A stretch of 64,000 nt of DNA, taken from Bacteroidota bacterium. GTDB taxonomy: Bacteria; Bacteroidota; Bacteroidia; JABEUT01. The notes beneath the pieces are model-generated. The model did not search any database. It had not been told where the DNA came from and worked only from the letters and a program-made list of their open reading frames with translations. Location of the stretch: positions 6,011 to 70,010 of the forward strand of contig JABDGY010000002.1 of NCBI GenBank assembly GCA_013285805.1. The letters are read 5' to 3'. Each line of letters begins with the position of its first letter. Position 1 is the stretch's first letter. The translations under genes and the position numbers were made by a program. Positions 29,105-56,215 of this stretch are shown here, piece after piece.

Positions 29105-29122
29105 TCTGTAGGACTTCTGTAG
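29105..29122. promoter_or_regulatory. conserved intergenic motif TCTGTAGGACTTCTGTAG (copy 1 of 3), 233 bp upstream of the giant fiber gene and 171 bp upstream of dcp
   Basis: Direct heptamer repeat TCTGTAG-N4-TCTGTAG. Near-identical copies lie at 47167-47184 and 56197-56215. Confidence 0.4.
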
Positions 29123-29292
29123 TAATTACGAATTCCATTCATACACTTCATAGAAACAAGCTTATAACCACTTCACAATTTCACCCAACTATTTACATAT
29201 CATTAAGTTATACCTTTCTATTTACAAAATAGCAATTCTCTTGATTTTTGTACCTTTGCGGCCCAAAATACATGGGTAATAAAATTATATTT

Positions 29293-31449
29293 ATGAAAAA
29301 GGTCTATATTTCATTTTTAGCTTTAATAATAATGGTAACTTCCTGCAACAATAACTCGAAACAAAAAGATAGTGCCTCCACTGGTCTTTCACCCGATAAT
29401 CCTTTTGCCAAAGCCAGTACCCTACCCTTTGAGGCACCAGACTTTAGCAAGATAAAAGACAGTAATTTCAAACCCGCGTTAGAAGCAGGAATTAAGGAAC
29501 AGCTTGATGAAATGAATAGGATAGCTGAGAACCCAGATGCACCTACCTTTGAAAATACAATGGTTGCTATGGAGAAAACAGGGCAACTGCTGCATAGGGT
29601 TAATAATGTTTTCAATCTGCTAAGCGGGGCCAACACTGACCCTGAACTGCAAAAACTATCGGAGGAAATTGCACCGGAATTGGCGGCAGAAAATGATGCC
29701 ATTTATCTTAACGATAAACTATTCAAAAGAGTTGAAGCTATTTATAATCAGAAAGCCCAACTGAAACTTGACCCTGAATCGGACAGACTGGTAGAATTCT
29801 ATTACCAGAAATTTGTGCTTTCGGGCGCCAAATTGCCTGATAAAGCCAAAGACAGTTTAAAAAAACTTAATAAAGAAGAAGCGATGCTTGGCGCCAAGTT
29901 TACAAACCAGTTACTGGCCGCTGCTAAATCAGGGGCACTGGTGGTTGATAGTAAAGACGCATTGGCCGGACTTTCTGATGGAGAAATAGATGCTGCCGCT
30001 TTGGCAGCAAAAAATGCTAACCAGGAAGGTAAATGGCTAATCCCTATACGAAATACTACGCAGCAACCCGCGTTACAGTCGTTGAACGTAAGGGCTACCC
30101 GCCAGAAATTATTTGAAGCCTCATGGAATCGCGCTGAAAAAGGAGATTCGAATGATACGCGCCCTACTATTTTACGGATTGCCGCTATTCGCGCGCAAAA
30201 AGCTAAACTTCTTGGATTCCCCAACTATGCTGCGTGGAAGTTAATGGACCAGATGGCAAAAAAACCTGAAGCAGTTGAAAAATTTATAAGCGACCTGGTG
30301 CCTGCTGTAACCGCAAAGGCTAAAATAGAAGCGTCCGACATACAAAAAGTTATAGACCAGCAAAACAAAGGCAATGATAAATTCAAGCTGCAGCCATGTG
30401 ACTGGAATTACTATGCGGAACAGGTTCGCAAAGCAAGGTTCGACCTTGATGAGAGCGAGGTAAAACCTTACTTTGAAATAAATAATGTACTTCAGAATGG
30501 TATTTTTTATGCAGCAAATAAGCTTTACGGGCTTACTTTTAAAGAACGCAAAGACCTTCCGGTATATGATAAGGATGTAAGAGTTTTTGAGGTTTTCGAT
30601 AAGGATGGAACTTCAATGGCATTATTCTACTGCGACTATTTCAAGCGCGATAATAAGAATGGCGGCGCATGGATGGATATAATGATGGGGCAATCGAAAT
30701 TACTTGGCACAAAACCTGTGGTATACAACATTTGCAATTTCACAAAACCTGCCGATGGGCAACCTGCATTAATCAGTTTCGATGACGTAACTACTATGTT
30801 CCATGAATTTGGCCATGCCCTCCATGGAATGTTTGCCGCTGAGCAATACCTTAGTCTTTCAGGCACTGCCACCGCTCGCGATTTTGTTGAATTCCCTTCA
30901 CAGTTTAATGAACATTGGGCATCGGACACAGCGGTATTCCGTAATTACGCAAAACATTATAAAACGGGTGAACCTATGCCCCAGGCCCTTGTAGATAAAA
31001 TAAAGAAAGCAGCTACTTTCAACCAGGGCTACAGCCTTATGGAAATAATTGCTGCTGCCGACCTTGATATGCAATGGCACGAAATATCGGCAGACAGTAA
31101 TGTAACTGACGTTGACAAGTTTGAATCGGCAGCGCTTGCCAAAACGCATCTTAATATGCATGAAGTGCCTACGCGCTACCGTTCCAGTTATTTCCTGCAT
31201 ATATGGAGTAATGGTTATGCAGCAGGCTATTATGCCTATTCATGGACTGAAATGCTTGCCGATGATGCGTTTAGCTGGTTTGAAGAGCATGGAGGCCTAA
31301 CACGTGAAAACGGACAGCGTTTCCGCGATATGATTCTTTCCAGGGGTAACACAGAAGACCTTGCAACTATGTACCGCAATTTCCGTGGCAGAGCCCCTGA
31401 AATTACCTCAATGGCAAAGAAGCGTGGCCTTACTGAAGGTAAAAACTAA
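29293..31449 (+). CDS. dcp: M3-family peptidyl-dipeptidase (Dcp-like) lipoprotein
   Basis: HEFGHALHG zinc motif and M3 family length and organisation. A lipoprotein signal (MKKVYISFLALIIMVTSC) puts the start at 29293 rather than the ORF-track start at 29248. Confidence 0.85.
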   Translation: MKKVYISFLALIIMVTSCNNNSKQKDSASTGLSPDNPFAKASTLPFEAPDFSKIKDSNFKPALEAGIKEQLDEMNRIAENPDAPTFENTMVAMEKTGQLLHRVNNVFNLLSGANTDPELQKLSEEIAPELAAENDAIYLNDKLFKRVEAIYNQKAQLKLDPESDRLVEFYYQKFVLSGAKLPDKAKDSLKKLNKEEAMLGAKFTNQLLAAAKSGALVVDSKDALAGLSDGEIDAAALAAKNANQEGKWLIPIRNTTQQPALQSLNVRATRQKLFEASWNRAEKGDSNDTRPTILRIAAIRAQKAKLLGFPNYAAWKLMDQMAKKPEAVEKFISDLVPAVTAKAKIEASDIQKVIDQQNKGNDKFKLQPCDWNYYAEQVRKARFDLDESEVKPYFEINNVLQNGIFYAANKLYGLTFKERKDLPVYDKDVRVFEVFDKDGTSMALFYCDYFKRDNKNGGAWMDIMMGQSKLLGTKPVVYNICNFTKPADGQPALISFDDVTTMFHEFGHALHGMFAAEQYLSLSGTATARDFVEFPSQFNEHWASDTAVFRNYAKHYKTGEPMPQALVDKIKKAATFNQGYSLMEIIAAADLDMQWHEISADSNVTDVDKFESAALAKTHLNMHEVPTRYRSSYFLHIWSNGYAAGYYAYSWTEMLADDAFSWFEEHGGLTRENGQRFRDMILSRGNTEDLATMYRNFRGRAPEITSMAKKRGLTEGKN

Positions 31450-31665
31450 TCTTAAGAACACGTTTATTTTTCCCTTATAGGGGAAATAAAGTGCAATTAA
31501 TTCTGTTCATGGTCGTCTAATCTTTTACACGATTGATTTAATGTACTTTAACTGAATACATAACCAGCATATATATCATAAACTTTACGGCTTAGAAAGA
31601 AAACAAATATTATTGTCCGAATCGAAAGATGTTATTACTTTTGCTTCGTTCCATCACAAAAGAAA

Positions 31666-33075: not shown

Positions 33076-33093
33076 CGATTTAAAAAACCTCTT

Positions 33094-41247: not shown

Positions 41248-44200
41248 TTACCATTGTTTAATCATCTTAGGTTGGCCAATAATGGTTCCATCCTGTGAAA
41301 TAATTCGTATAAGGTACATACCGTTAGGAAGGTCTGACGTGTTAAACTGCATGTGCACATCCTTAACCGATACGGTCCTGATAAGCATACCGAGCGTATT
41401 ATATATCTCTACTGTAGAACCTTCTTCCAGGCCATTTATCTGGAATTCTCCGCTGTTCGGGTTCGGGTAAAGGGTTACTTTACTTTCGGTAACATTTATG
41501 TTATCCACACCATTTGGGTTTTCTCCAATTTCGCCAACGGAGCAGCTAACAACTGTAGCAACTGCATTTACCTGGCAACCTTTCTTATCAGTTATAGTAA
41601 CTGTATAAGAACCTGCTGAAAGTTTGGTTGCATAGTAAGCAGTCTGTCCTGATGGTGTCCAAAGGAAAGTGTACGTTGGTGTTCCGCCTTTGTAACCTAC
41701 ATAAGCACTACCATTACCTGTAAGAGAACAGGTTGTTTTGGTAATACTATCCCTGAGTTGGGTAGGTTGTGTGATGGTAGTAGCAAGAGCAGTACCTGCG
41801 CAACCATTAGCATCGTTAATTACAACTGAGTAACTACCTGCTGTTAAACCTGAAGCCGTAGCTGAAATACTTACGCTTGGTGACCATGTAAAGGTATAAG
41901 GAGGTGTTCCATCCTTCACGCCTACTGTTTCAGAACCATTACTTCCGCCATAGCAGCTAACTTCTGTAGTTAAAGCTGCAACCAGGCTATCCCTGATTTT
42001 TGAAGGCTGGGTAATAGTTGCTTTTGCTGTAGCATTCGAGCAACCATTGTGGTCTTTTACAGTCACAGTATAAGTTCCAGCAGCAAGGCTAACACCTGTT
42101 GCTGAAGTACCACCTGAAGGAGACCATGCGTATGTATAAGGACTTGTTCCGCCCTTTACACCTACAGTAGCTGTTCCTGTTTTACCACCATTACATGCAT
42201 CGTTGGTTGTTGCTGTAATACTATCCCTGACAGCAGAAGGCTGGGTGATTGTTACAGTTGCAACCGCTGTACATCCATTCTTATCGGTAACGGTTACAGT
42301 ATATGAACCAGCAGCAAACGTGGTAACTGCAGCGGTTGTAGCACCGGTTGACCATTTATAGGTATACGTAGGTGTTCCACCTTTTACGCCTACAGTAGCC
42401 GCTCCGTTAGTACCACCATTACATGTTACATTCTTCAGGCTTGTAGCTACAATGCTATCCCTGAGTAATGTAGGTTGGGTAATAGTAACAGTAACTGTTG
42501 TACCTACGCATCCGTTGGCATCGTCAACTGCTACTGTGTATACACCTGCAGCAAGGCCGCTGGCTGTAGCTGTTGTTGTGCCATTCGACCATGCATAAGT
42601 ATAAGCCGGAGTTCCGTCTTTTACCCCTATGGTTGCGGTACCAATGGTAGTGCCATTACAATTATTATTTACCACTGATGACGTTACTAAACTATCCCTG
42701 ATTTTAGAAGGCTGGGTAATAACCGCATTTGCAGTAGCTGAGCAACCGTTGTGGTCCTTTACAGTTACAGTATAGCTTCCTGCACCTAAGCCGGTAGCAG
42801 TAGCACCTGTTCCGCCAGAAGGAGTCCATGCATAAGTATAAGGACTTGTACCGCCTGTTACACCTACTGAAGCACTACCTGTTTTTCCGCCGTTACATGC
42901 ATCATTAGTTGAAGCAGTTATGCTATCCCTAACAGCTGAAGGCTGGGTAATAGTTACAGTTGCAACTGCTGTGCATCCATTCTTATCGGTAACAGTTACA
43001 CTATATGAACCGGCCGTAAGGGCACTAACTATATTACTTGTGCCACCTGTTGACCAGCTATATGTATAAGGGCCTGTTCCGCCTTTTACGCCTAATGTGG
43101 CACTTCCGTTAGCACCGCCATTACATGTTACATTCTTCATGGTTGAGATACTATCCCTGAGTATGGCAGGCTGGGTAATGATAATTGTAAGCGTGGTGCC
43201 TGTGCAGCCATTCGCATCTGAAACTGCAACTTTATATGTACCTGCAGTTAAGTTATTGGCAGTTGCGCCTGTGCTGACACTCGGGGTCCAGCTAAAGAAG
43301 TAGGGAGCTGTTCCACCCTTTACGCCAATGGTAACGCTACCATTGTTTCCACCATAGCAACTTACATTAACCTGTGAACCGTGAGCAATACTATCTCTGA
43401 TAGCAGCAGGTTGAGAAATTACCACACTAGTGGTTGTTGCACAACCCAGGTGGTCTTTCACAGTAACAGTATATGTTCCTGCGCCAAGGCTGCTTGCTAC
43501 AGGAGCAGTGCCGCCTGTGGGAGACCAGGAATAAGTATACGGGCTGGTTCCACCGCTAGCTGTTACAGTAGCACTTCCTGTTTTGCTGGCGTTACAAGCA
43601 TCGTTTGTTTCCGATGTTATGGTAGCGCTAGGGGCAGGATTAGGCAATGTAACAGTAGCCGGAATACCTACGCAACCATTTGCATCGGTAATCGTTACTG
43701 TATAAGTGCCCGGAGCCAATGAACTTGTGCTTGATGTTGTAGCACCATTTGACCAGCTATATGTATAAGGGCCTGTTCCTCCGCTTGCTGTTACACTGGC
43801 AGAACCATTGCTGTTCGAGCAGGTTGATACAGTGTAGGTTGTTGTAGCCGTAATTGCTGAAGGCTGAGTGATAGTAGCCGAATCAACTAAAGTACACCCG
43901 TTAGCATCAGTTATAGTAACTGAATACGTTCCTATTTTAAGGCCGGTTATTGTATCACTCTTCACCTTATTGAACCATTTGTACTTATAAGGAGCAGATC
44001 CACCGGTAACAACTATAGAAGCGCTTCCATTGCTATCGCCATAACATGTAACACTCTTAGGAGTTATTACAGCTGTTAATGGTGTAGCATTCACAACTTT
44101 CACACTATCAGTGTTTGTACATCCGTGAAGGTCGGTTACGGTAACTGTATAAGTACCTGGCGCCAGATTGTTATCTACGTTTGAAACGCTGCCATTAGAC

Positions 44201-47109
44201 CAAAGGTAGGTATAAGGAGGTGTTCCACCGCCAGAGTATGCTGTAGCTGTTCCATTGTTCGAATTATAGCAGCCAAGGTTTACAGATATGCTGTCAACCA
44301 CCAATGCAGGTGGATTGTAAACACTAACTGAAGCCGAGGATGTACATCCGTGTGCGTCGGTAACAGTTACACTGCTTGTACCACCCGGAAGGGTATTGTC
44401 GGTAGCCGCTGTTACTCCATTGCTCCATGCATAGGTATAAGGAGAGGTCCCGCCTGTTACTACAACAGTGCCGGTATCGTTAGCGCTTCCGTTACAAGTA
44501 ACGTGGCTCAACTGCTGGCCTTTAACAGATACGTTATCGAACCTGTTATTGCCACTGGTAAGTGTTACGTTACTACCTCCAAACTGAATCTGGAATATTA
44601 AATTAGGGTTATTATTGGCTCCTTTATCAGAAGAAAGGTCAATATGAACCGGATACCACAAACTAGCTGATGTGATAGCATTAATGGCAGTCATTGAATC
44701 GGGTCTTGCTATACCGCCAACATTAAATGTATCCATAGCAGAGGTCAGGTTATTCCATGTAGAACCGCCATCTTTACTATAAGAGAATATAAGGAACTGA
44801 GCTCCCTTACCGCTTGAAGCAGAAAGTGCCCAATCTAACACTATGTTCTGGTAACCTGTTGTAGGAATATACCACATAAATGATGAACCTTGAACAGGGT
44901 TACGCGACCTTACAAAAAGGTTACCGGCCGCTGAACTACCGGTGTCGTTACCTGCTATTGGCAAATCATTAACTCCTGCACCTCCTGAACCATTATCAAG
45001 CAGCGAAGCTGTTGATGAAGGGTGTGAATATATCATGTGCGGGTTAGTTGTAGGAAGAACAGAAACATTAGGAGGCAGCGGGAATGCGCTGGTACCTAAG
45101 CTATCTCCACCGCCGCCGCCGGCAGGTGCTGTAGTGTTAAAATCCCAGTAGTGAATAACTTGCTGGGTAGATGCATTTTCAATGGTATCGTACAATACTG
45201 CAGGCTGGGTAACAGTACCCGTTGCAGCTGATTGGCATCCATTGCTCTCGGTAATGGTAACCGTGTAAGTGCCTGCTGTAAGACCACTTATAGATGTTGT
45301 GGTTGCTCCGTTTGACCATAAATATGTATAAGGAGAAGAACCGCCGGTTACTGTAACTGAAACTGCGCCATTACTGCCGCCGTTACATGATACATTGGTA
45401 ACTGTTGTGTGTCCAACAGCGCCGCTGGTACCAACTGTTACAACAGCAGTACCTGTACAACTATTAGAATCCTTAACGGTAACGGTATAAGAACCTGTAC
45501 CTAAGCCTCCGATAGTTGCAGTAGTAGCGCCTGTAGACCATAAGTAAGTATAAGGAGCGCCTACTTTATGAGGAGTTCCTCCACTAGCACTGGTAACAGA
45601 TGCACTTCCTAAAGTAGTACATGTTACAGGTGAAGAAGAAGTTGAAACTGAAATAGTAGAAGGTTGTGTTATATTTACAGAAACTGTACCTGTACAACCT
45701 TTTGAATCTGTTACAGTACAGGTATATGTACCTGCGGCAAGACCGGTTGCGGTTTTATTCGTGTTTCCTGTTGACCATAAATAAGTATATACACTTGAAC
45801 CGCCGGTTGCATTAACTGTTGCGCTACCATTTGAAGAACCATTACATGTAGGACTAATTTGAGATGTAACGGTAGCAGTAACTGCAGCAGGTTGAAGAAT
45901 TGTAACAGTACAAAAATAATAACCTGAATTATTATCATTTACGTTTACAGTATATGTACCAGCCGCTAAGCCATAAGCTGAATCGGTGGTGGTTCCACCA
46001 TATACTGGAGAATTGGTAACATTTGAAGACCATGAATAAGTATAAGGAGGGGTTCCGCCAACAGCCCATACACGGGCGCTTCCATTATCGCCACCGGAAC
46101 AAGGTGTTACATTTTGACGATTAACACAATACGCTACAAGACCTGTAGTAGCGCTATCGCCGAGAACTGCAAAGTTATCGTAGCGGCCATTCCCGCTGCC
46201 ACCGTTTGAACCTGTACCCACAACTTCCCAACGAAGCATAAAGTTAGGGTTATTGTTAGCAGTAGTTACAGAAGAAAGATTAATTGCAATAGGGCACCAT
46301 AAGCTACTGTCGATACCCGTGGTAGTAGCAGAACAAACTAACAATGAATCGGTGTTGGTTACCCATGAAGACCACCTTGCATTGTTAAAACCAGCAACAG
46401 AAGCTTGTCCACGTGGAATTGAATTCCATGAGGTACCTCCGTTTGTGCTGTATTGGAAAATGTCATACTTATTACCCTTTGAACTTGAAGCGGTAATAGC
46501 AAAATTAACGTGAATGTTCTGGTAACCTGTAGTAGGCATATATACATATGCATAACAGTTTTCAGATGGGTTACGTGTCCTGACAAAACAGTTTCCTGTT
46601 TCACTGGTTCCCGTATCTGAATAGTTCATGTAGTTATAACCCTGGCCACTATAAGAATAGTAAGTGGCACCACCCTGTCCATTGTCAATAATACTATCAT
46701 GGATAGTAGCTGCCAATGGTGTAGTTTGAATTGCATGCGGGCGGATATATACTATCCTGGGATTGCTGCTTACTAATTTCGAATAAACGGCAAACATTGA
46801 ACCTGTATGTTCAAGACTATCCGCATTACGCGAAGGAGGAGACGACAGTGGTGTGTAAGACCACACTGTCCCGAGACTATCGGCTGTTCCCCCATACATG
46901 GGCATTGTGCCGTTAAAATCCCAAAAGTGGATTAATTGTTGTGGTTGCTGGGCGTAACTTCGTGTTGCGAAGGATAGAAAGACCGCCAGCAAACAAACGA
47001 CAAAGATTTTTAAATTTGTTTTCATTTGATGTTTTGTTTGATTTTGATTGATTTTGTTTGGTTTAGAATTACTTGAGTTAATAAAAAATATGTTTTTTTG
47101 ATGTCGCAA
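41248..47109 (-). CDS. giant (1953 aa) SprB-repeat surface adhesin with two copies of an FWDFN-containing N-terminal-type domain and a T9SS type-A C-terminal sorting domain
   Basis: More than 20 SprB-like repeats (C..G..NGSA.V...GG..PYTY.WS.G); FWDFN domains at aa 55-320 and 645-865; and the C-terminus VTLYPNPNSGEFQI...GMYLIRIISQDG. The start region is preceded by copy 2 of the TCTGTAGGA motif. Confidence 0.85.
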   Translation of the reverse strand: MRHQKNIFFINSSNSKPNKINQNQTKHQMKTNLKIFVVCLLAVFLSFATRSYAQQPQQLIHFWDFNGTMPMYGGTADSLGTVWSYTPLSSPPSRNADSLEHTGSMFAVYSKLVSSNPRIVYIRPHAIQTTPLAATIHDSIIDNGQGGATYYSYSGQGYNYMNYSDTGTSETGNCFVRTRNPSENCYAYVYMPTTGYQNIHVNFAITASSSKGNKYDIFQYSTNGGTSWNSIPRGQASVAGFNNARWSSWVTNTDSLLVCSATTTGIDSSLWCPIAINLSSVTTANNNPNFMLRWEVVGTGSNGGSGNGRYDNFAVLGDSATTGLVAYCVNRQNVTPCSGGDNGSARVWAVGGTPPYTYSWSSNVTNSPVYGGTTTDSAYGLAAGTYTVNVNDNNSGYYFCTVTILQPAAVTATVTSQISPTCNGSSNGSATVNATGGSSVYTYLWSTGNTNKTATGLAAGTYTCTVTDSKGCTGTVSVNITQPSTISVSTSSSPVTCTTLGSASVTSASGGTPHKVGAPYTYLWSTGATTATIGGLGTGSYTVTVKDSNSCTGTAVVTVGTSGAVGHTTVTNVSCNGGSNGAVSVTVTGGSSPYTYLWSNGATTTSISGLTAGTYTVTITESNGCQSAATGTVTQPAVLYDTIENASTQQVIHYWDFNTTAPAGGGGGDSLGTSAFPLPPNVSVLPTTNPHMIYSHPSSTASLLDNGSGGAGVNDLPIAGNDTGSSAAGNLFVRSRNPVQGSSFMWYIPTTGYQNIVLDWALSASSGKGAQFLIFSYSKDGGSTWNNLTSAMDTFNVGGIARPDSMTAINAITSASLWYPVHIDLSSDKGANNNPNLIFQIQFGGSNVTLTSGNNRFDNVSVKGQQLSHVTCNGSANDTGTVVVTGGTSPYTYAWSNGVTAATDNTLPGGTSSVTVTDAHGCTSSASVSVYNPPALVVDSISVNLGCYNSNNGTATAYSGGGTPPYTYLWSNGSVSNVDNNLAPGTYTVTVTDLHGCTNTDSVKVVNATPLTAVITPKSVTCYGDSNGSASIVVTGGSAPYKYKWFNKVKSDTITGLKIGTYSVTITDANGCTLVDSATITQPSAITATTTYTVSTCSNSNGSASVTASGGTGPYTYSWSNGATTSSTSSLAPGTYTVTITDANGCVGIPATVTLPNPAPSATITSETNDACNASKTGSATVTASGGTSPYTYSWSPTGGTAPVASSLGAGTYTVTVKDHLGCATTTSVVISQPAAIRDSIAHGSQVNVSCYGGNNGSVTIGVKGGTAPYFFSWTPSVSTGATANNLTAGTYKVAVSDANGCTGTTLTIIITQPAILRDSISTMKNVTCNGGANGSATLGVKGGTGPYTYSWSTGGTSNIVSALTAGSYSVTVTDKNGCTAVATVTITQPSAVRDSITASTNDACNGGKTGSASVGVTGGTSPYTYAWTPSGGTGATATGLGAGSYTVTVKDHNGCSATANAVITQPSKIRDSLVTSSVVNNNCNGTTIGTATIGVKDGTPAYTYAWSNGTTTATASGLAAGVYTVAVDDANGCVGTTVTVTITQPTLLRDSIVATSLKNVTCNGGTNGAATVGVKGGTPTYTYKWSTGATTAAVTTFAAGSYTVTVTDKNGCTAVATVTITQPSAVRDSITATTNDACNGGKTGTATVGVKGGTSPYTYAWSPSGGTSATGVSLAAGTYTVTVKDHNGCSNATAKATITQPSKIRDSLVAALTTEVSCYGGSNGSETVGVKDGTPPYTFTWSPSVSISATASGLTAGSYSVVINDANGCAGTALATTITQPTQLRDSITKTTCSLTGNGSAYVGYKGGTPTYTFLWTPSGQTAYYATKLSAGSYTVTITDKKGCQVNAVATVVSCSVGEIGENPNGVDNINVTESKVTLYPNPNSGEFQINGLEEGSTVEIYNTLGMLIRTVSVKDVHMQFNTSDLPNGMYLIRIISQDGTIIGQPKMIKQW

Positions 47110-47166
47110 GATTAGCCCCTTAATCTCAACTTACTATGTCCGGCTCATTAATTAAATGCTAAAACT

Positions 47167-47184
47167 TTCTGTAGGAATTCTGTG
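47167..47184. promoter_or_regulatory. conserved intergenic motif TTCTGTAGGAATTCTGTG (copy 2 of 3), 58 bp upstream of the 1953-aa adhesin gene
   Basis: Same heptamer direct repeat as at 29105 and 56197. Confidence 0.4.
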
Positions 47185-47583
47185 TTAAGAAAATGTGAAT
47201 AGACATATGCAGCTATGTTAAAAACACCCGGAGAATGCCCTGTTTTAAAGGGCTACAGGAAAGTTTTCGTTGATGTTAATTGCTGTAAATCAGGCAAAAC
47301 CAACAAAAGAAGGTTATTCATATATTATATGAATATTAAGCCAATATTAACAAGGAATAGTAATAGTCTTAAGGGCTTTTAAATTAAGCTGGGGAAAAGC
47401 AATATTACTGCCTGGTTAGCTTATTAAATAACCTCGCCTATTTTCTGCTTTCCCCTATATCTTATCACCAGTATATTTTATCCATTATTATCAGAAAACG
47501 TGCCCGGTGATTCAGTATGAATAAAAGCTGAAGTAAGCTTAACCCTAAGGGGTTAATTTTTTCAATTTAAGGTAATAAAGCGG

Positions 47584-48333
47584 TTATAATGAATCAATGA
47601 CTTGCAGGAAAAGGTTCTTCTTTCTTGAAGAAACTGGAATAACCGACGAATCCTTCATAACGGCATACCCCCCATCGGCTTTCTTATAATGCTCAAAATA
47701 GTCAAGGTTGATAAAATGGGATTGATGTATCCTGAAAAAACCGAATTCATTCAGCATATCATCATATTCCTTTAAAGGCTTTGAAATTAAAATCTTGCGC
47801 CCGTCGTTCAGGAAAAACCTGGTATAATTTGCTTCCGATTCACAACGGATAATATCCTTTATGGCTACTGCATATATACTGTCGCTCGTTTTCAAGACAA
47901 TTTTTTTAGACTCCTTATTATTGTTTGAATAGTTATTCTCCAGAACTTCAAGGCCCTGGTTTATGGATGGCTGGTTAACAACCTCCTCAGCCTTGGCTAT
48001 AGCTGCAACCAATTCATTTGAATCAATAGGCTTTAAAATATAATCGAGTGCACTGAACTTGAATGCTTTTAAAGCGTGGGTTTCATACGCTGAAATAAAT
48101 ATAACCTTAAAAGTAATAGGCTTTAATTTATTCAGCAGGTCGAACCCGCTTCCGTCGCGCATTTGTATATCCAGCAAAACAAGGTCGGGCTTATGCTGCT
48201 TAATGGCCTGCATACCCGATTTAACCCCATCGGCTTGTGCAATAACTTCAACTTGCTTGCAATACTTACTAATAATTGAAGCAATTACCTCGCGGGCGCT
48301 TTGCATATCGTCAATTATTATAACTCTTGTCAT
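47584..48333 (-). CDS. LytTR-family response regulator (LytR/AlgR type)
   Basis: REC domain with the phospho-acceptor Asp context (DLVLLDIQM), plus a C-terminal LytTR DNA-binding domain. Confidence 0.85.
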   Translation of the reverse strand: MTRVIIIDDMQSAREVIASIISKYCKQVEVIAQADGVKSGMQAIKQHKPDLVLLDIQMRDGSGFDLLNKLKPITFKVIFISAYETHALKAFKFSALDYILKPIDSNELVAAIAKAEEVVNQPSINQGLEVLENNYSNNNKESKKIVLKTSDSIYAVAIKDIIRCESEANYTRFFLNDGRKILISKPLKEYDDMLNEFGFFRIHQSHFINLDYFEHYKKADGGYAVMKDSSVIPVSSRKKNLFLQVIDSL

Positions 48334-48363: not shown

Positions 48364-50490
48364 CTATGTCAATTCATGGAGTGGAAACTCAAAGACTACT
48401 TTTGTCCCCGTTGCTTCTCCTGCTCCATTTCTTAAGTCTATAATTTTCATTGAAATCTTTTTGCTTCCGTTCCCGTTAAGCAAGGTAATTCGTTCTTGTG
48501 TAATATTAGTGGCAACCGACAAATGTTTATCGCCCCGGTGTTTATTTATTTCATTCGCCTTTTCCCGGCCAATGCCGTTATCTTCTATTTCAAGTCTGAA
48601 TTTCTCTCCCTGCTGTTTTAACCGTATCGTAACCATTCCCTTTCCATCCGTTTTATTTGATATGCCATGTTCTATAGCATTTTCAATAAAGGGTTGAGCT
48701 ATCATCGGTGGTACGTTAATATTTTCAGTGTCCATTTCAGCATCTACATCAATAACAAAGTCGAACTTATGCTGGTAGCAGAGTTGCTGGAGAATGAGAT
48801 AATACCGTAAGGTAGAAATTTCTTTTTCAAGAGAAACATATTCATGCTTCGAACCTTCAAGAATAGAGCGCATAAGTTTAAATACCGACGAAAGGTAATC
48901 AGCCGCCTTTTGTGGTTCTTCCTTATAAATGAAGTTCTGTATGCTGGTCATTGCATTAAATATAAAATGCGGGTTCATTTGCGAACGCAATAATTTTTGC
49001 TGCAATTCTATTTTTGTGTGCAATGTCTTTATCCTGTTCTGGCGGAGCCATAAGAACCCAATGCCGATAATAATTAGAACAAGGCTTATCAATCCGAAAA
49101 TAAGATAGCCGCTTTGTTTTATTTGCAGGTTCTGTATTTCATTCTTTTGCGCCAGTTCTTCAATTTCCTTTTGTTTTTTCTCATTTTCATACCTGGCTTC
49201 CATTTCTGCCATTTGCTTGCTTTTTGCTATGCTAAAAAGTGTATCCTTTAAATGAATAACATTATCGAGGTATTGTGCCGATGCTTTATAATCTCCCGCT
49301 TTTGCCAACGTATGCCCCAATACCAACGACAACTCCATTTTTTGTTGTGTCAGCCCAAGGCTGTCAGCAATACCATATGCTTGTTTAAAACATGCTATTG
49401 CTTTCGCATAGTCTTTCTTTATTTCATAAATATCGCCAACACCGCGTATTCCCATTACAACACTTAACCTGTCATTTACAATTTTAGCTTCGGCAATGCT
49501 GTTCTGTTCATATACTAAAGCTGAATCAAGTAATTTAGCATGCGCAGTATAAAATCTTTTATCATTTGAAACATATTCAAGCCCTTCACCTGCCGTATCA
49601 TCTTCATAAGCCACAAGGAATGTCTGTCCTATATTACCAATAGCCTTTTGAATGTTGCCCAGTTCACCAATCTGCCTGCTTAAATTAAGCGCACGGTAAG
49701 TATATAACATAGCCATAGAATGGTTATGCAGATATAAATATCCCAGGCCTATATTCTGGTAGTCGGGTATAAGTTTGGTGGGGTCACCGGAAGTACTATC
49801 CATTTTAAGAGCCAGGAAATTATTTTTGAGCCCTTTTAAATTATTTCCTTCTATATAATAAAGATTACCCAGGTTGCTATATATTGATGCAGTTCCCGAT
49901 TCATCGTGCTGTAATTCAAATGCCTTTTCAGCCTTAATAAGATATTCCTCTGCTTTGGGGTAATTGCCCATATCTTCATAATCAAGTCCTATGTTATTGC
50001 ACATTTTCCCAATAGATTTCGGGTTTAACATGCTATCAATTGAAAGGGCTTTGAAGTAATAGTCGAGCCCGGTAGTATAATCATCCTGGTCAGAAGTAAT
50101 ATTCCCCAGCTCATTATAAATAGAGCTCAATTTCACATTATTGTTATACTCATTGCTTGCAGCCAACGCGCTATCTTCATAGGAAATGGCAGTTTTCAAA
50201 TCGCCTTTCAGTTCATAAAAGAGCCCTATGTTATATTGTGCATTAATTATGCCTTTCTCCCATTTGCCTGAACGTGAAAGGTTTAGTGCCTGGCGAACAA
50301 CCAGCAGGGCAGTATCAGGATTTTTAAATCCCACCTCATAGCCCAGGTGTATGAGTGTATTAATTTTTTCAGTATCACTGGTTGAATGGGCAATAACATT
50401 TTTAAGTGAATCGATTTTATAGCCGGCAACAAGGGGCAAAGAAAAACTCTGAAAAAATAAAAGAATTAATATGTGCTTCTTTTTACTCAT
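48364..50490 (-). CDS. sensor histidine kinase with signal peptide, TPR repeats, one TM helix and a LytS-type His_kinase/HATPase output
   Basis: TPR repeats in the N-terminal two-thirds, TM helix YLIFGLISLVLIIIGIGFLWL, a LytS-type His kinase domain (NPHFIFNAMTSIQNF) and HATPase motifs (IENAIEHG, DNGIG). Confidence 0.85.
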   Translation of the reverse strand: MSKKKHILILLFFQSFSLPLVAGYKIDSLKNVIAHSTSDTEKINTLIHLGYEVGFKNPDTALLVVRQALNLSRSGKWEKGIINAQYNIGLFYELKGDLKTAISYEDSALAASNEYNNNVKLSSIYNELGNITSDQDDYTTGLDYYFKALSIDSMLNPKSIGKMCNNIGLDYEDMGNYPKAEEYLIKAEKAFELQHDESGTASIYSNLGNLYYIEGNNLKGLKNNFLALKMDSTSGDPTKLIPDYQNIGLGYLYLHNHSMAMLYTYRALNLSRQIGELGNIQKAIGNIGQTFLVAYEDDTAGEGLEYVSNDKRFYTAHAKLLDSALVYEQNSIAEAKIVNDRLSVVMGIRGVGDIYEIKKDYAKAIACFKQAYGIADSLGLTQQKMELSLVLGHTLAKAGDYKASAQYLDNVIHLKDTLFSIAKSKQMAEMEARYENEKKQKEIEELAQKNEIQNLQIKQSGYLIFGLISLVLIIIGIGFLWLRQNRIKTLHTKIELQQKLLRSQMNPHFIFNAMTSIQNFIYKEEPQKAADYLSSVFKLMRSILEGSKHEYVSLEKEISTLRYYLILQQLCYQHKFDFVIDVDAEMDTENINVPPMIAQPFIENAIEHGISNKTDGKGMVTIRLKQQGEKFRLEIEDNGIGREKANEINKHRGDKHLSVATNITQERITLLNGNGSKKISMKIIDLRNGAGEATGTKVVFEFPLHELT

Positions 50491-50847
50491 CTTATATTAA
50501 TACTGTAAAGATAAGACAGGTTGCCGATTGATGGCAAAAAGCCCCTTTTTTATTCATTTACCTATGTTTTCCGGTAAAAATCTATAACCGAATAATAGTT
50601 TAGATATAGCGAATAATCAATGGGCTATATTCTATAGGAAAGAGAGGGGTTAAATGGAATCCCGATTACTGAAATTTGCGTTGAAAGTATATGTAAGTAC
50701 AATTATGAGAGCAACAGATTCAGCTTTTATTTTCTTACCGGTGGAATACGTATCGAACAAAAGTTAAGGGACCTAAGGCAAAACTAAATTTACTATATAT
50801 TTGACAATCATCCTTAATCGCAAATTACATACTTAATAAATACAATC

Positions 50848-53800
50848 ATGAAAAAATCTACAGCCTTATTCAAAATCGTTCTTACCATGGTTACCTTAAC
50901 CATGCTATTTAACTTCACCAAAGCCCAAACAGTTGGTGTATTATATGGCATGGCACCAAAAGGAGGAGATAGCCTGGGAGGTGTTCTGTATAATTACGAC
51001 CCCCTTAGCTCCGCAAACAATGTGGCTTACCCTTTTCAAAACGTAGGGCCTGAGTATCCTTATTATAATAATATGATACAGGCTAACGATGGTAACTACT
51101 ACGGTATGACAAGCTCGGGTGGTGGTTATAGTTATGGAACATTATTCCAGTATAACCCAACAACTAAAAAAGTAAAGGTGCTTGTTAACTTCGACAATTA
51201 TACTCTTGGGGCAGACCCTACCGGAAGCCTTATACAGGCCACAGATGGAAATTTATATGGCATGACAAGTTTTGGAGGAAGCATAAATGGTTTTGGTACC
51301 TTATTCAGATACTCTTTATCGGGAACTTTTACAACCCTGGTTGTATTTAACGACACAAATGGCGGAAACCCATACGGTAGCCTTATACAAGGTGTCGATG
51401 GCAAGTTATATGGCATGACAAACACAGGTGGCATGATTGGTAGCGGAAATTACGGTTACGGTTTTGGTACAATATTTGTCAGCACATTATCGGGTACACT
51501 TGCAACCCTGGTTAATTTCGACAGTACTACTATGGGCTGTTATCCTTATGGCAGTCTTATTCAGGGTATTGACGGTAACCTGTATGGTATGGCAAACCAG
51601 GGCGGTACTTCTGACTCAGGAACAATGTTCAAGTGCAGTACAACAGGAACGTTCACTACTCTTGTAAATTTTAATCATACTAAAGGCTCTCTCCCGTATG
51701 GCAGTCTTATCCAGGCTACCAATGGCTATTTGTATGGTATGACTGAAATGGGCGGTGCTTCAAACCAGGGAACACTATTTAAATGTACAACTGCTGGCAC
51801 ATTTAGTTCACTGGGCTTTTTTGCCAATGGCGAATATCCTCTTGGCAGTGTTATACAAGCTACTGATGGTAACCTGTATGGTATGACAAGCGGTGGCGGT
51901 GCTCATGGTGATGGTTACGTTTTTAAATGCGGCCTGAGTGGAGGCTTTTCCGACATCTTTGATTTCAATAGTGTAAATGGACAAAATCCTTTCAGCAGCC
52001 TTTACCAGGGGAGCGACGGTGAACTTTACGGAATGACATATGTTGGCGGTACTGTGAAAAGTGGTACACTTTTCAAATGTTCTACAACAGGAACCCAGGT
52101 AGTGCTTGATAATTTTGCCAGCTGCTCCAATGGCAATCTTCCTTACGGAAACGTAATTCAGGCTACTGATGGAAACCTGTACGGCATGACTGAATATGGC
52201 GGAACATATAATCTGGGAAGTATATTCCAGTACAACCCGGTTTCAGGCGCATACAAAACCCTTTACGATTTTGATAGCATTCACGGTGCAACCCCAACGG
52301 GAACCCTACTGCAGGCAAATAACGGAAAGCTATACGGTATGACGGACGATGGGGGCAAGCACGGTTACGGTATACTTTTTTCCATAACAACTGCAGGTGT
52401 TTTTGATACACTTATGAGTTTCAGCAACCAAACTACAATGGGTGCATATCCTGTTGGCGCGCTTATTCAGGCTAAAGATGGAAATTTATATGGCGCTACA
52501 CTGCAGGGAGGCACGGCCAGTGAAGGTGTATTATTCAAATATACACTGGCAGGCGTCTTTACCAAATTAGTTGATTTTACAGGTAGCAATGGCGCGTACC
52601 CCAGGGCAGGCGTTATGCAGGCATCTGATAACAACTTATATGGCACAACCAACCAGGGTGGTTCATCAAGTTCAGGAACAATTTACAGGTGTACAACCAG
52701 CGGAACACTTACTACATTGGTAAACTTCAATTATGGTAACGGTGAAAATCCTTATAGCAAACTTGTTCAGGCAACTGATGGAAATTTGTGGGGCATAGCA
52801 GGCAGCGCAAATGGCGAAGTATTTAAGTGCAGCCTTGCAGGAACCCTTACTGTAATGGCTTCAATGAATGGAAGCACAACAGGCGCTACACCTGAGGGTA
52901 GTCTTATCCAGGCTTCAGACGGTAATTTTTACGGTACAGTTTATGGTGGAGGTACTACCGGATATGGTATTGTGTTCCAATGTACATTGGCCGGTGCACT
53001 TACACCTGTTGTGAATTTCAATATCAATAACGGTCAGGGGCCCAATGCTGATCTGACTGAAGTTATGAGCGTATCTGTTTCAGCAAGCGATGTTGGTTGT
53101 ACAGTTCAAACACTTACTGCAAATGTGAGAGGCGGTGGTACAATAGTGCCTTATACTTATTCATGGTCTACAGGTGCAACCACATCGAGTATAAGCGGCA
53201 TTACCGCTGCAGGTACATATAGTGTTACTGTTACCAATTCAAAGGGCATAGCCATTACCTCAAGTATTGCATTGCCATCATTTACGCCTATCAGTTCTTC
53301 CATGGTCAGCGTAAATGAACCTTGTTTTGGCGATAACTTTGGCAGCGCCACCGATAATGTAATGGGTGGTACATCACCTTATGTTTATTCATGGAATAAT
53401 GGAGCAACCACTTCTGCAGTTAATAATGTGGGGGCGGGAAAATATGTTGTTACTGCTATTGATAATTCAGGCTGCAAAACAAAAGATAGTGTAACCATAA
53501 CACAACCCTCAATGCTTACGGTTGCAATGACGGGCACTAATGACAAATGCTTTGGGTTCCCGAATGGCTCTGCTTCGGCTACCCCTGCCGGAGGTACATC
53601 CCCTTATGTTTATTCATGGAATACATCCAGTACCGCCCCTTCTATTAACAACCTTGCTGCAGGAACCTATAGTGTTACCGTAACAGATAATCATGGGTGT
53701 ACAGCCATGGGTACCGATACGGTTAAGCAACCAGCTAATACACTCGATAGTGCCAGAATATGTATGGTAACCGTTGATACAGGTTCGGTACATAATATCA

Positions 53801-54612
53801 TATCGTGGAATACAACGGGCATTACTAATGTAGATAGCTTTAAGGTTTACTTTTACAATTCCAGTAACCACTGGCAATTACTTGGTGAACAGTTATTCTC
53901 GGCACCAAGCTATTATGTAGATACAGCCAAAATCAACAATCCTAATGCCAATACGGTTAGGTACTGCTTAACCGCGGTTGATTCATGCGGCAATGAAGAA
54001 GCCATTACCGCAAGTACCTGGCAGAATACAGCCCATATAATAAATACAGGCGGCGGAACCTTTAGCTGGTCAGGAACAGGATACCTTATCCAGGGTGTGG
54101 GATTACCTGTTCAAACATACTATCTGTACCGTGATAATTTAAGCAGCGGCAACTGGAAAGCTATCGATTCTGTATCAGGTACCCAGAATACAATGACCGA
54201 CCCGAACTATTCTTTGTATCCTACCGGAAGGTGGAGAGTTGATGCATTGCTTAGTGTTTCCGGATGTACTCCTCCAACTTTGAGGGTTGAATCAATCAAT
54301 TACAATTCTTCAAAATCGAACATTATAGATGGTTTCATAACAGGAGTGCAAACTATTTCTTCTGCAAACTCTGTTTCTGTATATCCTAATCCTGCAAACC
54401 AGGTGCTGAATATCAGTTTCGCTAAGTTCAAGTCCGACAATGTTAGTATAGATATTACAGATGTCACCGGTAGAGTTATAATGAGCATGGATGCAAATGC
54501 TACTCAAGGTAAAGTTCTTCCTGTGGACATTGAATACCTGCCTTCGGGAATTTACTTTGTACACATTGCAAATAATAACTTTACTCAAACAGTAAAATTT
54601 GTAAAGGAATAA
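50848..54612 (+). CDS. large (1254 aa) secreted protein with choice-of-anchor tandem GloVer (Gloeo_Verruco) repeats, SprB repeats and a T9SS type-A C-terminal sorting domain
   Basis: About 20 repeats of G.LYGMT..GG....GTLFK....GTFTTLVNF (GloVer type), then PYTYSWSTG / PYVYSWNNG SprB repeats, and a C-terminal VSVYPNPANQVLNI...GIYFVHIANNNFTQTVKFVKE. Confidence 0.8.
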   Translation: MKKSTALFKIVLTMVTLTMLFNFTKAQTVGVLYGMAPKGGDSLGGVLYNYDPLSSANNVAYPFQNVGPEYPYYNNMIQANDGNYYGMTSSGGGYSYGTLFQYNPTTKKVKVLVNFDNYTLGADPTGSLIQATDGNLYGMTSFGGSINGFGTLFRYSLSGTFTTLVVFNDTNGGNPYGSLIQGVDGKLYGMTNTGGMIGSGNYGYGFGTIFVSTLSGTLATLVNFDSTTMGCYPYGSLIQGIDGNLYGMANQGGTSDSGTMFKCSTTGTFTTLVNFNHTKGSLPYGSLIQATNGYLYGMTEMGGASNQGTLFKCTTAGTFSSLGFFANGEYPLGSVIQATDGNLYGMTSGGGAHGDGYVFKCGLSGGFSDIFDFNSVNGQNPFSSLYQGSDGELYGMTYVGGTVKSGTLFKCSTTGTQVVLDNFASCSNGNLPYGNVIQATDGNLYGMTEYGGTYNLGSIFQYNPVSGAYKTLYDFDSIHGATPTGTLLQANNGKLYGMTDDGGKHGYGILFSITTAGVFDTLMSFSNQTTMGAYPVGALIQAKDGNLYGATLQGGTASEGVLFKYTLAGVFTKLVDFTGSNGAYPRAGVMQASDNNLYGTTNQGGSSSSGTIYRCTTSGTLTTLVNFNYGNGENPYSKLVQATDGNLWGIAGSANGEVFKCSLAGTLTVMASMNGSTTGATPEGSLIQASDGNFYGTVYGGGTTGYGIVFQCTLAGALTPVVNFNINNGQGPNADLTEVMSVSVSASDVGCTVQTLTANVRGGGTIVPYTYSWSTGATTSSISGITAAGTYSVTVTNSKGIAITSSIALPSFTPISSSMVSVNEPCFGDNFGSATDNVMGGTSPYVYSWNNGATTSAVNNVGAGKYVVTAIDNSGCKTKDSVTITQPSMLTVAMTGTNDKCFGFPNGSASATPAGGTSPYVYSWNTSSTAPSINNLAAGTYSVTVTDNHGCTAMGTDTVKQPANTLDSARICMVTVDTGSVHNIISWNTTGITNVDSFKVYFYNSSNHWQLLGEQLFSAPSYYVDTAKINNPNANTVRYCLTAVDSCGNEEAITASTWQNTAHIINTGGGTFSWSGTGYLIQGVGLPVQTYYLYRDNLSSGNWKAIDSVSGTQNTMTDPNYSLYPTGRWRVDALLSVSGCTPPTLRVESINYNSSKSNIIDGFITGVQTISSANSVSVYPNPANQVLNISFAKFKSDNVSIDITDVTGRVIMSMDANATQGKVLPVDIEYLPSGIYFVHIANNNFTQTVKFVKE

Positions 54613-54639
54613 ATAAGCTGACAACCCCATGATAAAAAG

Positions 54640-54669
54640 CCTCCGGCAGTATTGCCGGAGGTTTTTTTA
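54640..54669 (+). terminator. Rho-independent terminator downstream of the 1254-aa gene
   Basis: Stem CCTCCGGCA / TGCCGGAGG with loop GTAT, followed by T7. Confidence 0.85.
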
Positions 54670-54940
54670 TAGATGCTGGGGCGCACAACCCCAACCTCAC
54701 TCAATCGTGACAACTATTTGAACGAAATGTATCCTGAGGCAGTAGCCTTTATTTATCTAGTGCTTTGTTTCCATTACTCTATAAGAATATCTATGCTTCA
54801 CAAGGCAACTCCATTATGGCAACTTGAAAAGGGAAACATACTGAAATGCAGATTACGATGCTTATATTAACTTGCCTGTAATGCGGCATTATGTCGGGAG
54901 CGGCCTTTTTTTAAATAAAGTAAAGTGGTTTAGAAGGGCA

Positions 54941-54972
54941 AAAAAAGGGCTGCATAAATGCAGCCCTTTTAA
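54941..54972. terminator. Rho-independent terminator (bidirectional) downstream of the minus-strand gene 54990..56072
   Basis: A6 run, then stem GGGCTGCA / TGCAGCCC with loop TAAA, then TTTT. Confidence 0.75.
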
Positions 54973-54989
54973 ACTAAATTAATTCGGTT

Positions 54990-56072
54990 TTAGTTCTTTA
55001 CAAACTTAAGGATGTAAGAATTTCCTGTCCTGGTTTCCTTAATATTTACAAAATACAAACCAGAGCTCAACTCTTCTGTATTAATATTAAATTGCTTGTT
55101 CTCTTCTACCTGTATAGAATTTACAGGCTGGCCAAGAACATTATATACAGTTACAATTTTAGAACCATTGTAAGTACCATTGATGGTAGTAGAAGTACTT
55201 GCAGGGTTAGGATATAAAGTATAGCCGCCCACCGGAGAAGATAATTCATCAATAGAAGAAGGGCCTGTAGCTAAAACAGCTATATTGTCATACCTGTCGT
55301 TATGGCTAGGTGCTGAACAATTAGATCCTGCCGGGCGGAATCTCAGAATAAAATTAGCATTGTTATTCACTGAGGTATCGCTTGCAAAATTTATCTGAAC
55401 CGGGTACCAGCCGCTGGTAGCTGTAATGGTATTATTTATCAGTAAAGTGTCAGGATAACGAACACCGCCAATATTAAAAGTATCCATTGCCTGGGTAAGG
55501 TTTTTCCATGTAACACCGTTATTGGTGCTATATGAAATTATATTGTATTGCGCAGCGCCAGAGCTGGAAGTAGAAACTGCATAATTTACTGAAATACCCT
55601 TGTAACCTGTGGTTGGGGCATAAATGTATAAATAGCAGCTATCGGAAGGATTACGGGCCCTGATAAATCCGTTGCCTATTGCACCTCCGCTATCACTTGT
55701 AGTGAAGTACGAATATTTGTTGCTACTGTAGTCGTAATAAAATGCTCCTCCAGAACCTTCATCAAGAATACTGTCTCTTTGTCCTGTTCCGCCTGAGCCG
55801 TAAATTTTAGTCGGGCGGGTGTAAATAATATGTCCCTTTGATGACAATGGTGCAGTGTAAGCCGCATTCAATGGCCAGGTATCCATGGTGGAATCACTGG
55901 CTGCCGTGTTGATATAGCTGAATATTGTTCCAACACTGTCACCAGCTGTAACTGTCACCGGGTGAAATTGGTTAAAATCCCAGAATTGAACTAGTATCTG
56001 AGCATTTGCCCTGGGAAGGGAAAATACTAAAGACACTGATAGCGCTAAATAGATGTAAAGTTTTGTTTTCAT
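54990..56072 (-). CDS. secreted protein with one FWDFN-type domain and a T9SS type-A C-terminal sorting domain
   Basis: Signal peptide; the domain runs from FWDFN through YSTNNGVTWKNLTQAMDTFNIGGVRYPDTLL to RYDNIAV; and the C-terminus YTLYPNPASTSTTI...GLYFVNIKE...ILKFVKN. Confidence 0.8.
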   Translation of the reverse strand: MKTKLYIYLALSVSLVFSLPRANAQILVQFWDFNQFHPVTVTAGDSVGTIFSYINTAASDSTMDTWPLNAAYTAPLSSKGHIIYTRPTKIYGSGGTGQRDSILDEGSGGAFYYDYSSNKYSYFTTSDSGGAIGNGFIRARNPSDSCYLYIYAPTTGYKGISVNYAVSTSSSGAAQYNIISYSTNNGVTWKNLTQAMDTFNIGGVRYPDTLLINNTITATSGWYPVQINFASDTSVNNNANFILRFRPAGSNCSAPSHNDRYDNIAVLATGPSSIDELSSPVGGYTLYPNPASTSTTINGTYNGSKIVTVYNVLGQPVNSIQVEENKQFNINTEELSSGLYFVNIKETRTGNSYILKFVKN

Positions 56073-56196
56073 GAACTTTGTTTTAGTGTGTTATTAATAA
56101 ATACTTAAAGTGGCGCAAGAGTAAGGCTTGTTTGTTACCTTATTGTTAATTACATATTACGATAAGTATTCATTTTCAATTGACTGCAGCGCTCAA

Positions 56197-56215
56197 TTCT
56201 GTAGGAAATCTGTAG
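56197..56215. promoter_or_regulatory. conserved intergenic motif TTCTGTAGGAAATCTGTAG (copy 3 of 3), 125 bp upstream of gene 54990..56072
   Basis: Same heptamer direct repeat as copies 1 and 2. Confidence 0.4.

Follow-up and report, generated by a model that had tools for sequence, protein, structure and literature searches.

The Pho box of Escherichia coli, to which PhoB binds, is made of two 7-bp direct repeats with a 4-bp spacer, giving 18 bp with an 11-bp period and a fixed orientation. In the complexes of PmrA/BasR and KdpE, a winged-helix dimer lies head to tail on tandem direct repeats about one helical turn apart. OmpR at ompF and ompC, like a distal PhoP-box, acts from upstream of -40 in a manner that depends on helical phase and passes through the alpha subunit of RNA polymerase. 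Here we describe an 18-bp motif built on the heptamer CTACAGA that recurs three times in 64,000 nucleotides (nt) of a Bacteroidota bacterium (assembly GCA_013285805.1, contig JABDGY010000002.1, positions 6,011 to 70,010; this whole stretch is called the window below), each copy lying upstream of a surface-protein gene. The motif has the same 7+4+7 layout, 11-bp period and fixed orientation as the Pho box, but its half-site is CTACAGA instead of CTGTCAT. From the comparison of genomes we think it rather probable that the element is an operator of an OmpR/PhoB-family response regulator that is conserved across Bacteroidota and encoded outside the window, and that it modulates three units from a distance, namely a collagen-like fibre operon, the gene of an SprB-repeat adhesin and the gene of a protein with an FWDFN domain and a C-terminal domain (CTD) of the system for type IX secretion (T9SS).

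The operators of LytTR regulators such as AgrA, YpdB and VirR are likewise direct repeats upstream of promoters, and a LytTR gene is found nearby here. However, those sites have repeats of 9-11 nt and spacers of 11-13 nt (PMC4847170), and the motif in the window, with 7 nt and 4 nt, does not have these sizes. For type IX secretion, passages of two reports on Porphyromonas gingivalis describe PorXY-SigP as a two-component control of the system (PMC4800418, PMC5005315), which works via an extracytoplasmic function (ECF) sigma factor on the genes of secretion-system components (PMC4800418), and a passage of another gives PglZ as the output domain of PorX (PMC9757075). Our case is similar in its link between a two-component system and T9SS, but here a winged-helix regulator would act on the promoters of cargo and adhesin genes. 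A passage on Flavobacterium johnsoniae mentions an OmpR-family regulator and gives no binding site there (PMC10197871). In the literature, TCTGTAG and CTACAGA combined with terms for regulators gave primer-type coincidences only, and no paper describing the motif was found; the conservation of an operator-regulator pair of this kind across Bacteroidota appears to be undescribed.

The pattern CTACAGAnnTCCTACAGA (minus strand) has three copies in the window, two of them exact and one with 2 mismatches, listed here with their centres relative to the predicted transcription starts.

29105..29122, minus strand: candidate operator copy S1, CTACAGAAGTCCTACAGA on the gene strand and TCTGTAGGACTTCTGTAG as read; predicted centre about -95.5
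47168..47185, minus strand: candidate operator copy S2, ACACAGAATTCCTACAGA on the gene strand and TCTGTAGGAATTCTGTGT as read; predicted centre about -74.5
56198..56215, minus strand: candidate operator copy S3, CTACAGATTTCCTACAGA on the gene strand and TCTGTAGGAAATCTGTAG as read; predicted centre about -95.5

All three copies are intergenic (the window has about 7 kb of intergenic DNA), are on the same strand and lie upstream of minus-strand surface-protein genes, in agreement with a preliminary description of this DNA. That description had also seen a heptamer repeated directly at an 11-bp period, and a repeat analysis confirmed this: CTACAGA occurs twice per copy, 11 nt from start to start, in all three, and the architecture is a 7+4+7 bp direct repeat of 18 bp. 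S1, directed at the collagen-like gene, consists of two 7-nt direct repeats and a 4-nt spacer. S2, directed at the SprB-repeat adhesin gene, has 2 mismatches, which are in the distal repeat. S3, directed at the FWDFN/CTD gene, is an exact match to the form predominant across Bacteroidota and lies 28 nt past a PorP/SprF stop codon. The coordinates given earlier for S1 hold, while those of S2 had to be shifted by one base and S3 had been started one base early. The distances from motif to ATG are 233 (S1), 143 (S2) and 126 nt (S3), where 233, 58 and 125 had been proposed. The large change at S2 follows the start of the SprB-repeat gene, which is most likely ATG 47025 and not TTG 47109, because the signal peptide MKTNLKIFVVCLL then aligns with MKTTLKFFVTCLF of the ortholog. 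With this start the adhesin has 1925 residues (aa) instead of 1953; its identity as an SprB-repeat adhesin stands, since Pfam finds SprB repeats and a T9SS CTD in it.

The motif is a genuine shared cis element, far beyond chance. At up to 3 mismatches, TCTGTAGGANNTCTGTRG matches the window only at S1, S2 and S3 (0, 1 and 0 mismatches); the shuffle expectation is 0.41, and three matches were reached in 1 of 100 shuffles. Compared with CTACAGANNTCCTACAGA, the three copies have 0, 0 and 2 mismatches among them, where calculation gives about 0.03 expected matches at up to 2 mismatches per 128 kb, both strands included, and 30 shuffles contained no match with fewer than 3 mismatches. When the scan was extended to 5 mismatches, no site in the window fell between the three copies and a background of 4-5 mismatches. 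The heptamer TCTGTAG occurs 10 times in the window, with 5.0 expected; five of these are within S1-S3, and the lone heptamers elsewhere are at chance level. Two partial relatives that had been reported, at 47253 and 50632, did not survive inspection, for each is a lone half-site on the opposite strand that carries 1-2 core mismatches and lacks a second repeat 11 nt away. Alignment of the three upstream regions showed the motif and a -7 box only; there are no longer repeats common to the three regions, and no Rfam family matched the motif regions. High chance frequency and a dispersed-repeat origin, two of the doubts that the preliminary description had itself raised, were not borne out in the window.

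A weak fourth CTACAGA-like site (CTCCAGAATGTCTACAGG then ATT, 4 mismatches) lies at 62932-62949 (+), and a TonB-dependent receptor gene starts about 130 nt downstream of it, at 63083. Taken alone it is within chance expectation. Its CTCCAGA variant is also seen at one locus of another genome (L132), and TonB-dependent receptors are frequent targets of the motif in other genomes.

The single other conserved block in the aligned upstream regions is TAnnCTTGCG(C/A)C. The window contains this exact form three times, in every case downstream of one of the motif copies:

29019..29030, minus strand: predicted -7 box of the collagen-like operon, TATACTTGCGCC, 74 nt downstream of S1
47103..47114, minus strand: predicted -7 box of the SprB-repeat gene, TAATCTTGCGAC, 53 nt downstream of S2; TAATCTTGCA in the ortholog at L119
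56112..56123, minus strand: predicted -7 box of the FWDFN/CTD gene, TACTCTTGCGCC, 74 nt downstream of S3; four orthologs have TAATCTTGCA or TATTCTTGCA

The composite ACAGANNTCCTACAGA-N{50,80}-TANNCTTGCG has three matches in the window and none in 100 shuffles. Between motif end and box TA the three regions have gaps of 74, 53 and 74 nt, and the sequences that fill these gaps are dissimilar. The difference between the gaps is 21 nt, or two helical turns, and the displacement from a class II position is 44 and 65 nt, or 4.2 and 6.2 helical turns. The three sites therefore lie on the same face of the helix.

The TAnnCTTGCG box is, by prediction, a -7 promoter element of the sigma-A type, because it recurs at unrelated genes, is kept in orthologs and fits the known consensus. 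The form TAnn(A/C/T)TTGCG stands 21-59 nt upstream of unrelated start codons in the window (the M3 peptidase, 1326-aa CHU_C and 265-aa CTD genes), and the box is conserved 30-44 nt before the ATG of FWDFN and SprB orthologs in four related metagenomic genomes. About 40 nt upstream of the box are also conserved between the S2 promoter and its ortholog at L119. The sigma-A -7 consensus of Bacteroidota is TAnnTTTG, located at -12 to -5 in the transcription-start map of Flavobacterium psychrophilum (PMC9723704), and the window box agrees with it at 5 of 6 specified positions, C replacing the first T. The motif centres of about -95.5 and -74.5 were obtained because this box is taken as the -7 element. 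Transcription is predicted to start 12 nt downstream of the T in each TA, near 29018, 47102 and 56111 (minus strand). The earlier opinion that the motif is a response-regulator-type site and not a -33/-7 promoter agrees with its 7+4+7 direct-repeat form. A simple sigma-70 consensus scan of the window remained at background level, that consensus being not informative for Bacteroidota. We also considered a class II promoter right after the motifs and rejected it, as there is no convincing -7 box 9 nt after any window copy: S1 does have a TA at +9, yet it agrees with the box at no more than 3 of 6 positions, and neither S2 nor S3 has anything at this place.

When one genome from each of 185,579 species was scanned for the exact pattern, 114 loci were found, which form a coding and a non-coding group. 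In the coding group, to which a large share of the matches belongs, CTACAGACTTCCTACAGAAGCAGAATGGGA encodes YRLPTEAEWEYA of FGE/SUMF1-type (GldJ-like) proteins in several phyla, and the exact 18-mer CTACAGACTTCCTACAGA is found, for example, at L010, L023, L025, L043, L053 and L060. Because YRLPTEAEWEYA of these FGE-type enzymes is encoded by the same 18-mer, motif scans must exclude coding DNA. The non-coding group in Bacteroidota comprises Pedobacter, Mucilaginibacter, Maribacter, Aquimarina and Hymenobacter, as well as metagenome-assembled genomes (MAGs) of Cytophagales, Chitinophagales and Crocinitomicaceae. A start codon follows 21-116 nt downstream, in the orientation of the motif, at 19 of the 21 distinct non-coding loci. 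TA is located exactly 9 nt after the motif at 17 of 26 non-coding sites, and at 14 of the 26 the sequence at position +9 matches TAnnTTTG in at least 5 of 6 specified positions. A 7+4+7 bp motif ending 9 nt before a -7 box has Pho-box geometry and would therefore replace the upstream promoter element. In this respect most Bacteroidota sites are like the Pho box, but in the window 53-74 nt, and not 9-10 nt, separate the sites from the -7 box, and they thus have no class II placement. Six loci (L026, L065, L117, L070, L131 and L132) contain arrays of 3-5 tandem 11-bp units, as would be expected of a regulator that oligomerises head to tail.

The genes downstream of the motif in other genomes code for TonB-dependent receptors, a YncE-like propeller, small proteins and a two-component system whose operon carries the motif itself. 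A T9SS cargo gene was found there once, in a Cytophagales MAG (L028) with the motif 21 nt upstream of the gene of a T9SS CTD protein, which is homologous to the second gene product of the collagen-like operon in the window (E = 1.5e-20). In a collection of metagenome contigs the extended motif CTACAGAWTTCCTACAGAWTT was present at only 5 loci, two of them duplicating genome loci. The composite of motif, 50-80 nt and box had no match there, and the collection evidently has no contig bearing the window sites.

The YncE-like protein, a seven-bladed beta-propeller, recurs among the targets of the motif in two orders (Pedobacter, at L048, L056, L067 and L076; a Chitinophagaceae MAG, at L065, 3156-4157). 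At L065 three tandem units are located about 670 nt upstream of the propeller gene. The window has a 485-aa propeller too (17836..19293, with weak Lactonase and YncE-type Pfam matches), which has no upstream motif.

In Pedobacter agri and one other genome, the gene directly downstream of the motif codes for an OmpR-family response regulator. When the Pedobacter agri regulator was used in tblastn, a regulator with 50-54 % identity was found in the same 8-kb locus at 11 motif loci, and nothing was found in the loci of the coding group. The linked regulators always adjoin a kinase of about 415-430 aa. Four arrangements occur, in which the order is motif-regulator-kinase, motif-TonB-dependent receptor-regulator-kinase, divergent, or regulator-kinase-motif-next gene, and in Pedobacter agri there are 3-4 motif copies around the two-component operon. 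The operon thus appears to be self-regulated in other genomes. Five linked regulators have a conserved recognition helix, D-x-(F/Y)-D-(F/Y)-I-Y-x-H-x-K-N-L-(K/R)-K-K. We also examined whether this helix covaries with the CTCCAGA variant, but the comparison is uninformative because the helix is identical in L070 and L132.

For a converse test, four homologs of the regulator were taken without regard to the motif, with a background of 0.22 matches per 8.7 kb. One of them, L130, was left out as it ends before the testable region, and the tandem repeat was present at each of the 3 testable loci, as a 1-mismatch tandem site directly 3' of the kinase gene (L131), as two 3-mismatch sites at the expected intergenic positions (L129) and as a drifted CTCCAGAATTT array in the equivalent place (L132). 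The regulator scores below every NCBIfam equivalog cut-off, the best being PmrA with 179 vs 330. It reaches 138.7 bits against a cut-off of 270 for NF053854 (Bacteroidetes PhoB) and 154.4 against 296.2 for TIGR02154, and is therefore not PhoB. Its closest solved relatives are PmrA/BasR (E = 1e-40) and KdpE (E = 4e-34), represented by the complexes 4S04/4S05, 8JO2 and 4KNY, which differ in half-site sequence. The regulator family is very widespread in Bacteroidota; its profile retrieved at least 8,000 protein clusters at E <= 1e-40, a threshold loose enough to include OmpR-family paralogs.

If the window sites belong to this regulator, the operator would be (C/A)(T/C)ACAGA-nnTC-CTACAGA. A phosphorylation-dependent winged-helix protein of about 226 aa, served by a kinase of about 415-430 aa, would bind both heptamers as a head-to-tail dimer, one helical turn apart. 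The regulator would then be present in this organism and bound to the window sites, where it may modulate, and most likely activate, the TAnnCTTGCG sigma-A promoters from about -74.5 at the SprB-repeat gene or about -95.5 at the collagen-like and FWDFN genes. We infer a distal, class I-like action of the same regulator from one face of the helix, by which three T9SS-related fibre and adhesin units would answer one signal. OmpR at ompF and ompC and the PhoP-box offer a parallel to these positions and to the 21-nt register. However, those systems usually combine a distal with a proximal site, and here no CTACAGA half-site is found near -33; unlike the proximal OmpR-family site of the ompF/ompC type, the -33 region of the window promoters holds a GTTAAYA repeat instead.

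Several points weigh against this interpretation. The link between regulator and motif is a genomic association only, and the transcription starts are predicted ones. The gaps of 53-74 nt to the -7 box compare with 9 nt typical of the family, and because the window sites have no box at 9 nt, the mode of action here is not the well-supported one; such distal placement is unusual. Neither the window nor about 10 kb on its left side encodes an OmpR-family regulator. The orthologous FWDFN/SprB promoters of four relatives (L119, L120, L121 and L123) have no motif at up to 3 mismatches, and hence there is no phylogenetic footprint for the window sites. As the motif is absent and the -7 box is kept in these relatives, the motif is here a lineage-specific addition and not a general feature of T9SS cargo genes. 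The idea, put forward in the preliminary description, of a common element that coordinates three surface-protein units remains plausible, but a dedicated T9SS cargo element does not, with one cargo target elsewhere.

The three target units and the two-component genes in their midst are as follows.

19303..28872, minus strand: target unit 1, the collagen-like operon of three genes
22378..28872, minus strand: collagen-repeat/Peptidase_S74 protein of 2164 aa (Pfam)
20412..22391, minus strand: CHU_C T9SS protein, overlapping the collagen-repeat gene by 14 nt
19303..20403, minus strand: PorP/SprF of unit 1, after an 8-nt gap from the CHU_C gene
41248..47025, minus strand: target gene 2, SprB-repeat adhesin of 1925 aa with a T9SS type A C-terminal domain, start ATG 47025
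54990..56072, minus strand: target gene 3, protein of 360 aa whose N-terminal domain is FWDFN and whose C-terminal domain is T9SS type A (Pfam)
47584..48333: LytTR response regulator (Pfam)
48364..50490: TPR/His_kinase sensor paired with the LytTR regulator (Pfam)

Pfam upheld the earlier annotations of the collagen-like, FWDFN/CTD and LytTR proteins. The LytTR pair is located between targets 2 and 3, the 3' end of the regulator gene being about 400 nt away from S2, and the family is known to bind direct repeats (PMC4847170). For these reasons it is natural to ask whether the LytTR regulator and its sensor control the repeats, as the preliminary description had supposed, but we regard this as very unlikely. 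Known LytTR sites have a period of about 20-24 bp compared with 11 bp here, and their spacer does not fit. When the LytTR regulator of the window was used in tblastn on all motif loci, only OmpR-type receiver domains were found and never a LytTR domain; it is the OmpR-type regulator that is linked to the motif. In addition, the promoter region of the LytTR operon itself (50491-50847) has no motif copy. Another dimeric transcription factor of this organism, perhaps a repressor or an anti-silencer, would be easier to reconcile with the distal position of 53-74 nt, which differs from the 9-nt geometry of the regulator-linked sites, with a window that has no OmpR-type regulator and with relatives that have no motif; the OmpR link seen elsewhere would then not carry over. 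We hold this to be unlikely, though not strongly so. Over the 16 positions that the regulator-linked operator specifies, S1 and S3 match exactly and S2 with 2 mismatches, and this agreement makes an independent origin for another factor unlikely. The A/T-rich 3' flank is also common to the window and the regulator-linked sites, and the wide spread of the regulator family in Bacteroidota argues in the same direction.

The motif might also be a promoter element of an alternative or ECF sigma factor, given that in other Bacteroidota its distal heptamer is located where the -33 element would stand, or an upstream activating sequence of sigma-54 with the TTGC of the box as its -12 element. Both seem highly improbable to us. 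The tandem arrays of 3-5 units and the linkage to a regulator gene argue for a transcription-factor site, and in the window the motif is 53-74 nt away from a box that is the generic sigma-A -7 element of unrelated genes. The sigma-54 reading of the box (GG at -24 and GC at -12, 10 nt apart) was tried and rejected: S2 has a GG 10 nt upstream of GC and is the only copy with this spacing, and S1 and S3 lack a GG at -24. Finally, it is hardly credible that the copies recur by chance, or that they are pieces of some dispersed repeat or mobile element and regulate nothing. It is true that the same 18-mer arises in FGE/SUMF1-type coding sequence of many phyla and that the 114 matches in the genome collection are not above the roughly 280 calculated for uniform composition. 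However, the window has three copies where about 0.03 are expected, all intergenic, co-oriented and phased to the -7 box, and their flanks share only the motif and the box and belong to no Rfam family.

Another repeat with an 11-bp phase, GTTAAYA-N4-GTTAAYA (3 mismatches allowed), is located in promoters of T9SS-CTD genes in the window and in relatives. In the window it is found at 56133-56150, 29051-29068, 61342-61370 and 8363-8380 (all minus), and in the relatives at 8437 in L119, 8732 and 7088-7240 in L120, and 9920-9948 and 7256-7284 in L121. It stands 9, 20 or 31 nt (9+11k) upstream of the TA of a predicted -7 box, the gap being 9 modulo 11 in 10 of 17 cases, though some matches may be compositional, since the repeat is rich in A/T and GTTAAC is a palindrome. 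Where the CTACAGA motif shows no conservation this repeat does, and it may be the proximal operator of another regulator.

In the FWDFN/SprB paralog family the -7 box TAATCTTGCA is unusually invariant, including the normally free 'nn' positions. Sites of this type are located at 47103-47114 and 56112-56123 in the window, at 3376, 8475 and 10015 in L119, at 8770 and 9955 in L120, at 9958 in L121 and at 9959 in L123. The signal peptides of the family have similar beginnings as well, in most cases MKT. There may have been a joint duplication of promoter and 5' end, or these promoters may form a specialised class.

A more far-reaching view, which we offer as tentative and somewhat doubtful, is that an undescribed OmpR-type system with the operator CTACAGA-N4-CTACAGA has in this uncultured lineage been recruited to distal, helically phased sites (about -74.5 and -95.5), upstream of promoters where the conserved GTTAAYA repeat already held the class II position, and that the two response-regulator-type inputs are integrated, together switching on the fibre operon and the two adhesins. 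Almost nothing is known about how environmental Bacteroidota time the display of T9SS adhesins and fibres, and PorXY-SigP concerns the secretion machinery. If our preferred interpretation of an OmpR-family operator is right, a very widespread and unnamed two-component system would acquire a testable operator pairing, and the 18-bp pattern could be used to predict its regulon in any Bacteroidota genome. It would also be a case of lineage-specific rewiring: adhesin promoters would have acquired a distal operator that is absent from close relatives. If the view with two inputs is right as well, the expression of T9SS adhesins in environmental Bacteroidota would have its first cis-regulatory code.

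Some further observations concern the target genes and their surroundings. The collagen-repeat protein (22378-28872, minus) ends in a Peptidase_S74 (endosialidase chaperone) domain, as in phage tail fibres, and has no T9SS C-terminal domain detectable by Pfam; its gene is translationally coupled to those of the CHU_C protein and PorP/SprF. The 5' leader of the SprB-repeat gene (47032-47071) is A/C-rich and has, directly 5' of the ATG, three 10-nt-phased copies of CAAAAYCAAW (minus). The 1326-aa CHU_C protein (57321-61301, minus) likewise opens with an FWDFN N-terminal domain (LIHFWDFNN), and its promoter (TAACATTGCG at 61332) is without the CTACAGA motif.

At the left end of the window a tRNA gene (407-477, +) adjoins a block just beyond the window, in the left flank, where one assembly or another shows one or two serine recombinases. 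The block (L133-L135) also contains HTH_3, DUF2779 and DUF2130 genes, its content differs between assemblies, and it is probably an integrated mobile element. SpoIIE-type phosphatases with TPR, PAS or 7TMR sensors and SiaC-like (PF09345) proteins recur near adhesin clusters both in the window (5254-7245 and 10956-13498, both minus) and in the relative L120 (11278-12221 and 16341-20792), and DUF6272 is found in L120 only. This recurrence of SpoIIE-type and SiaC-like proteins suggests partner-switching regulation in the adhesin neighbourhoods.

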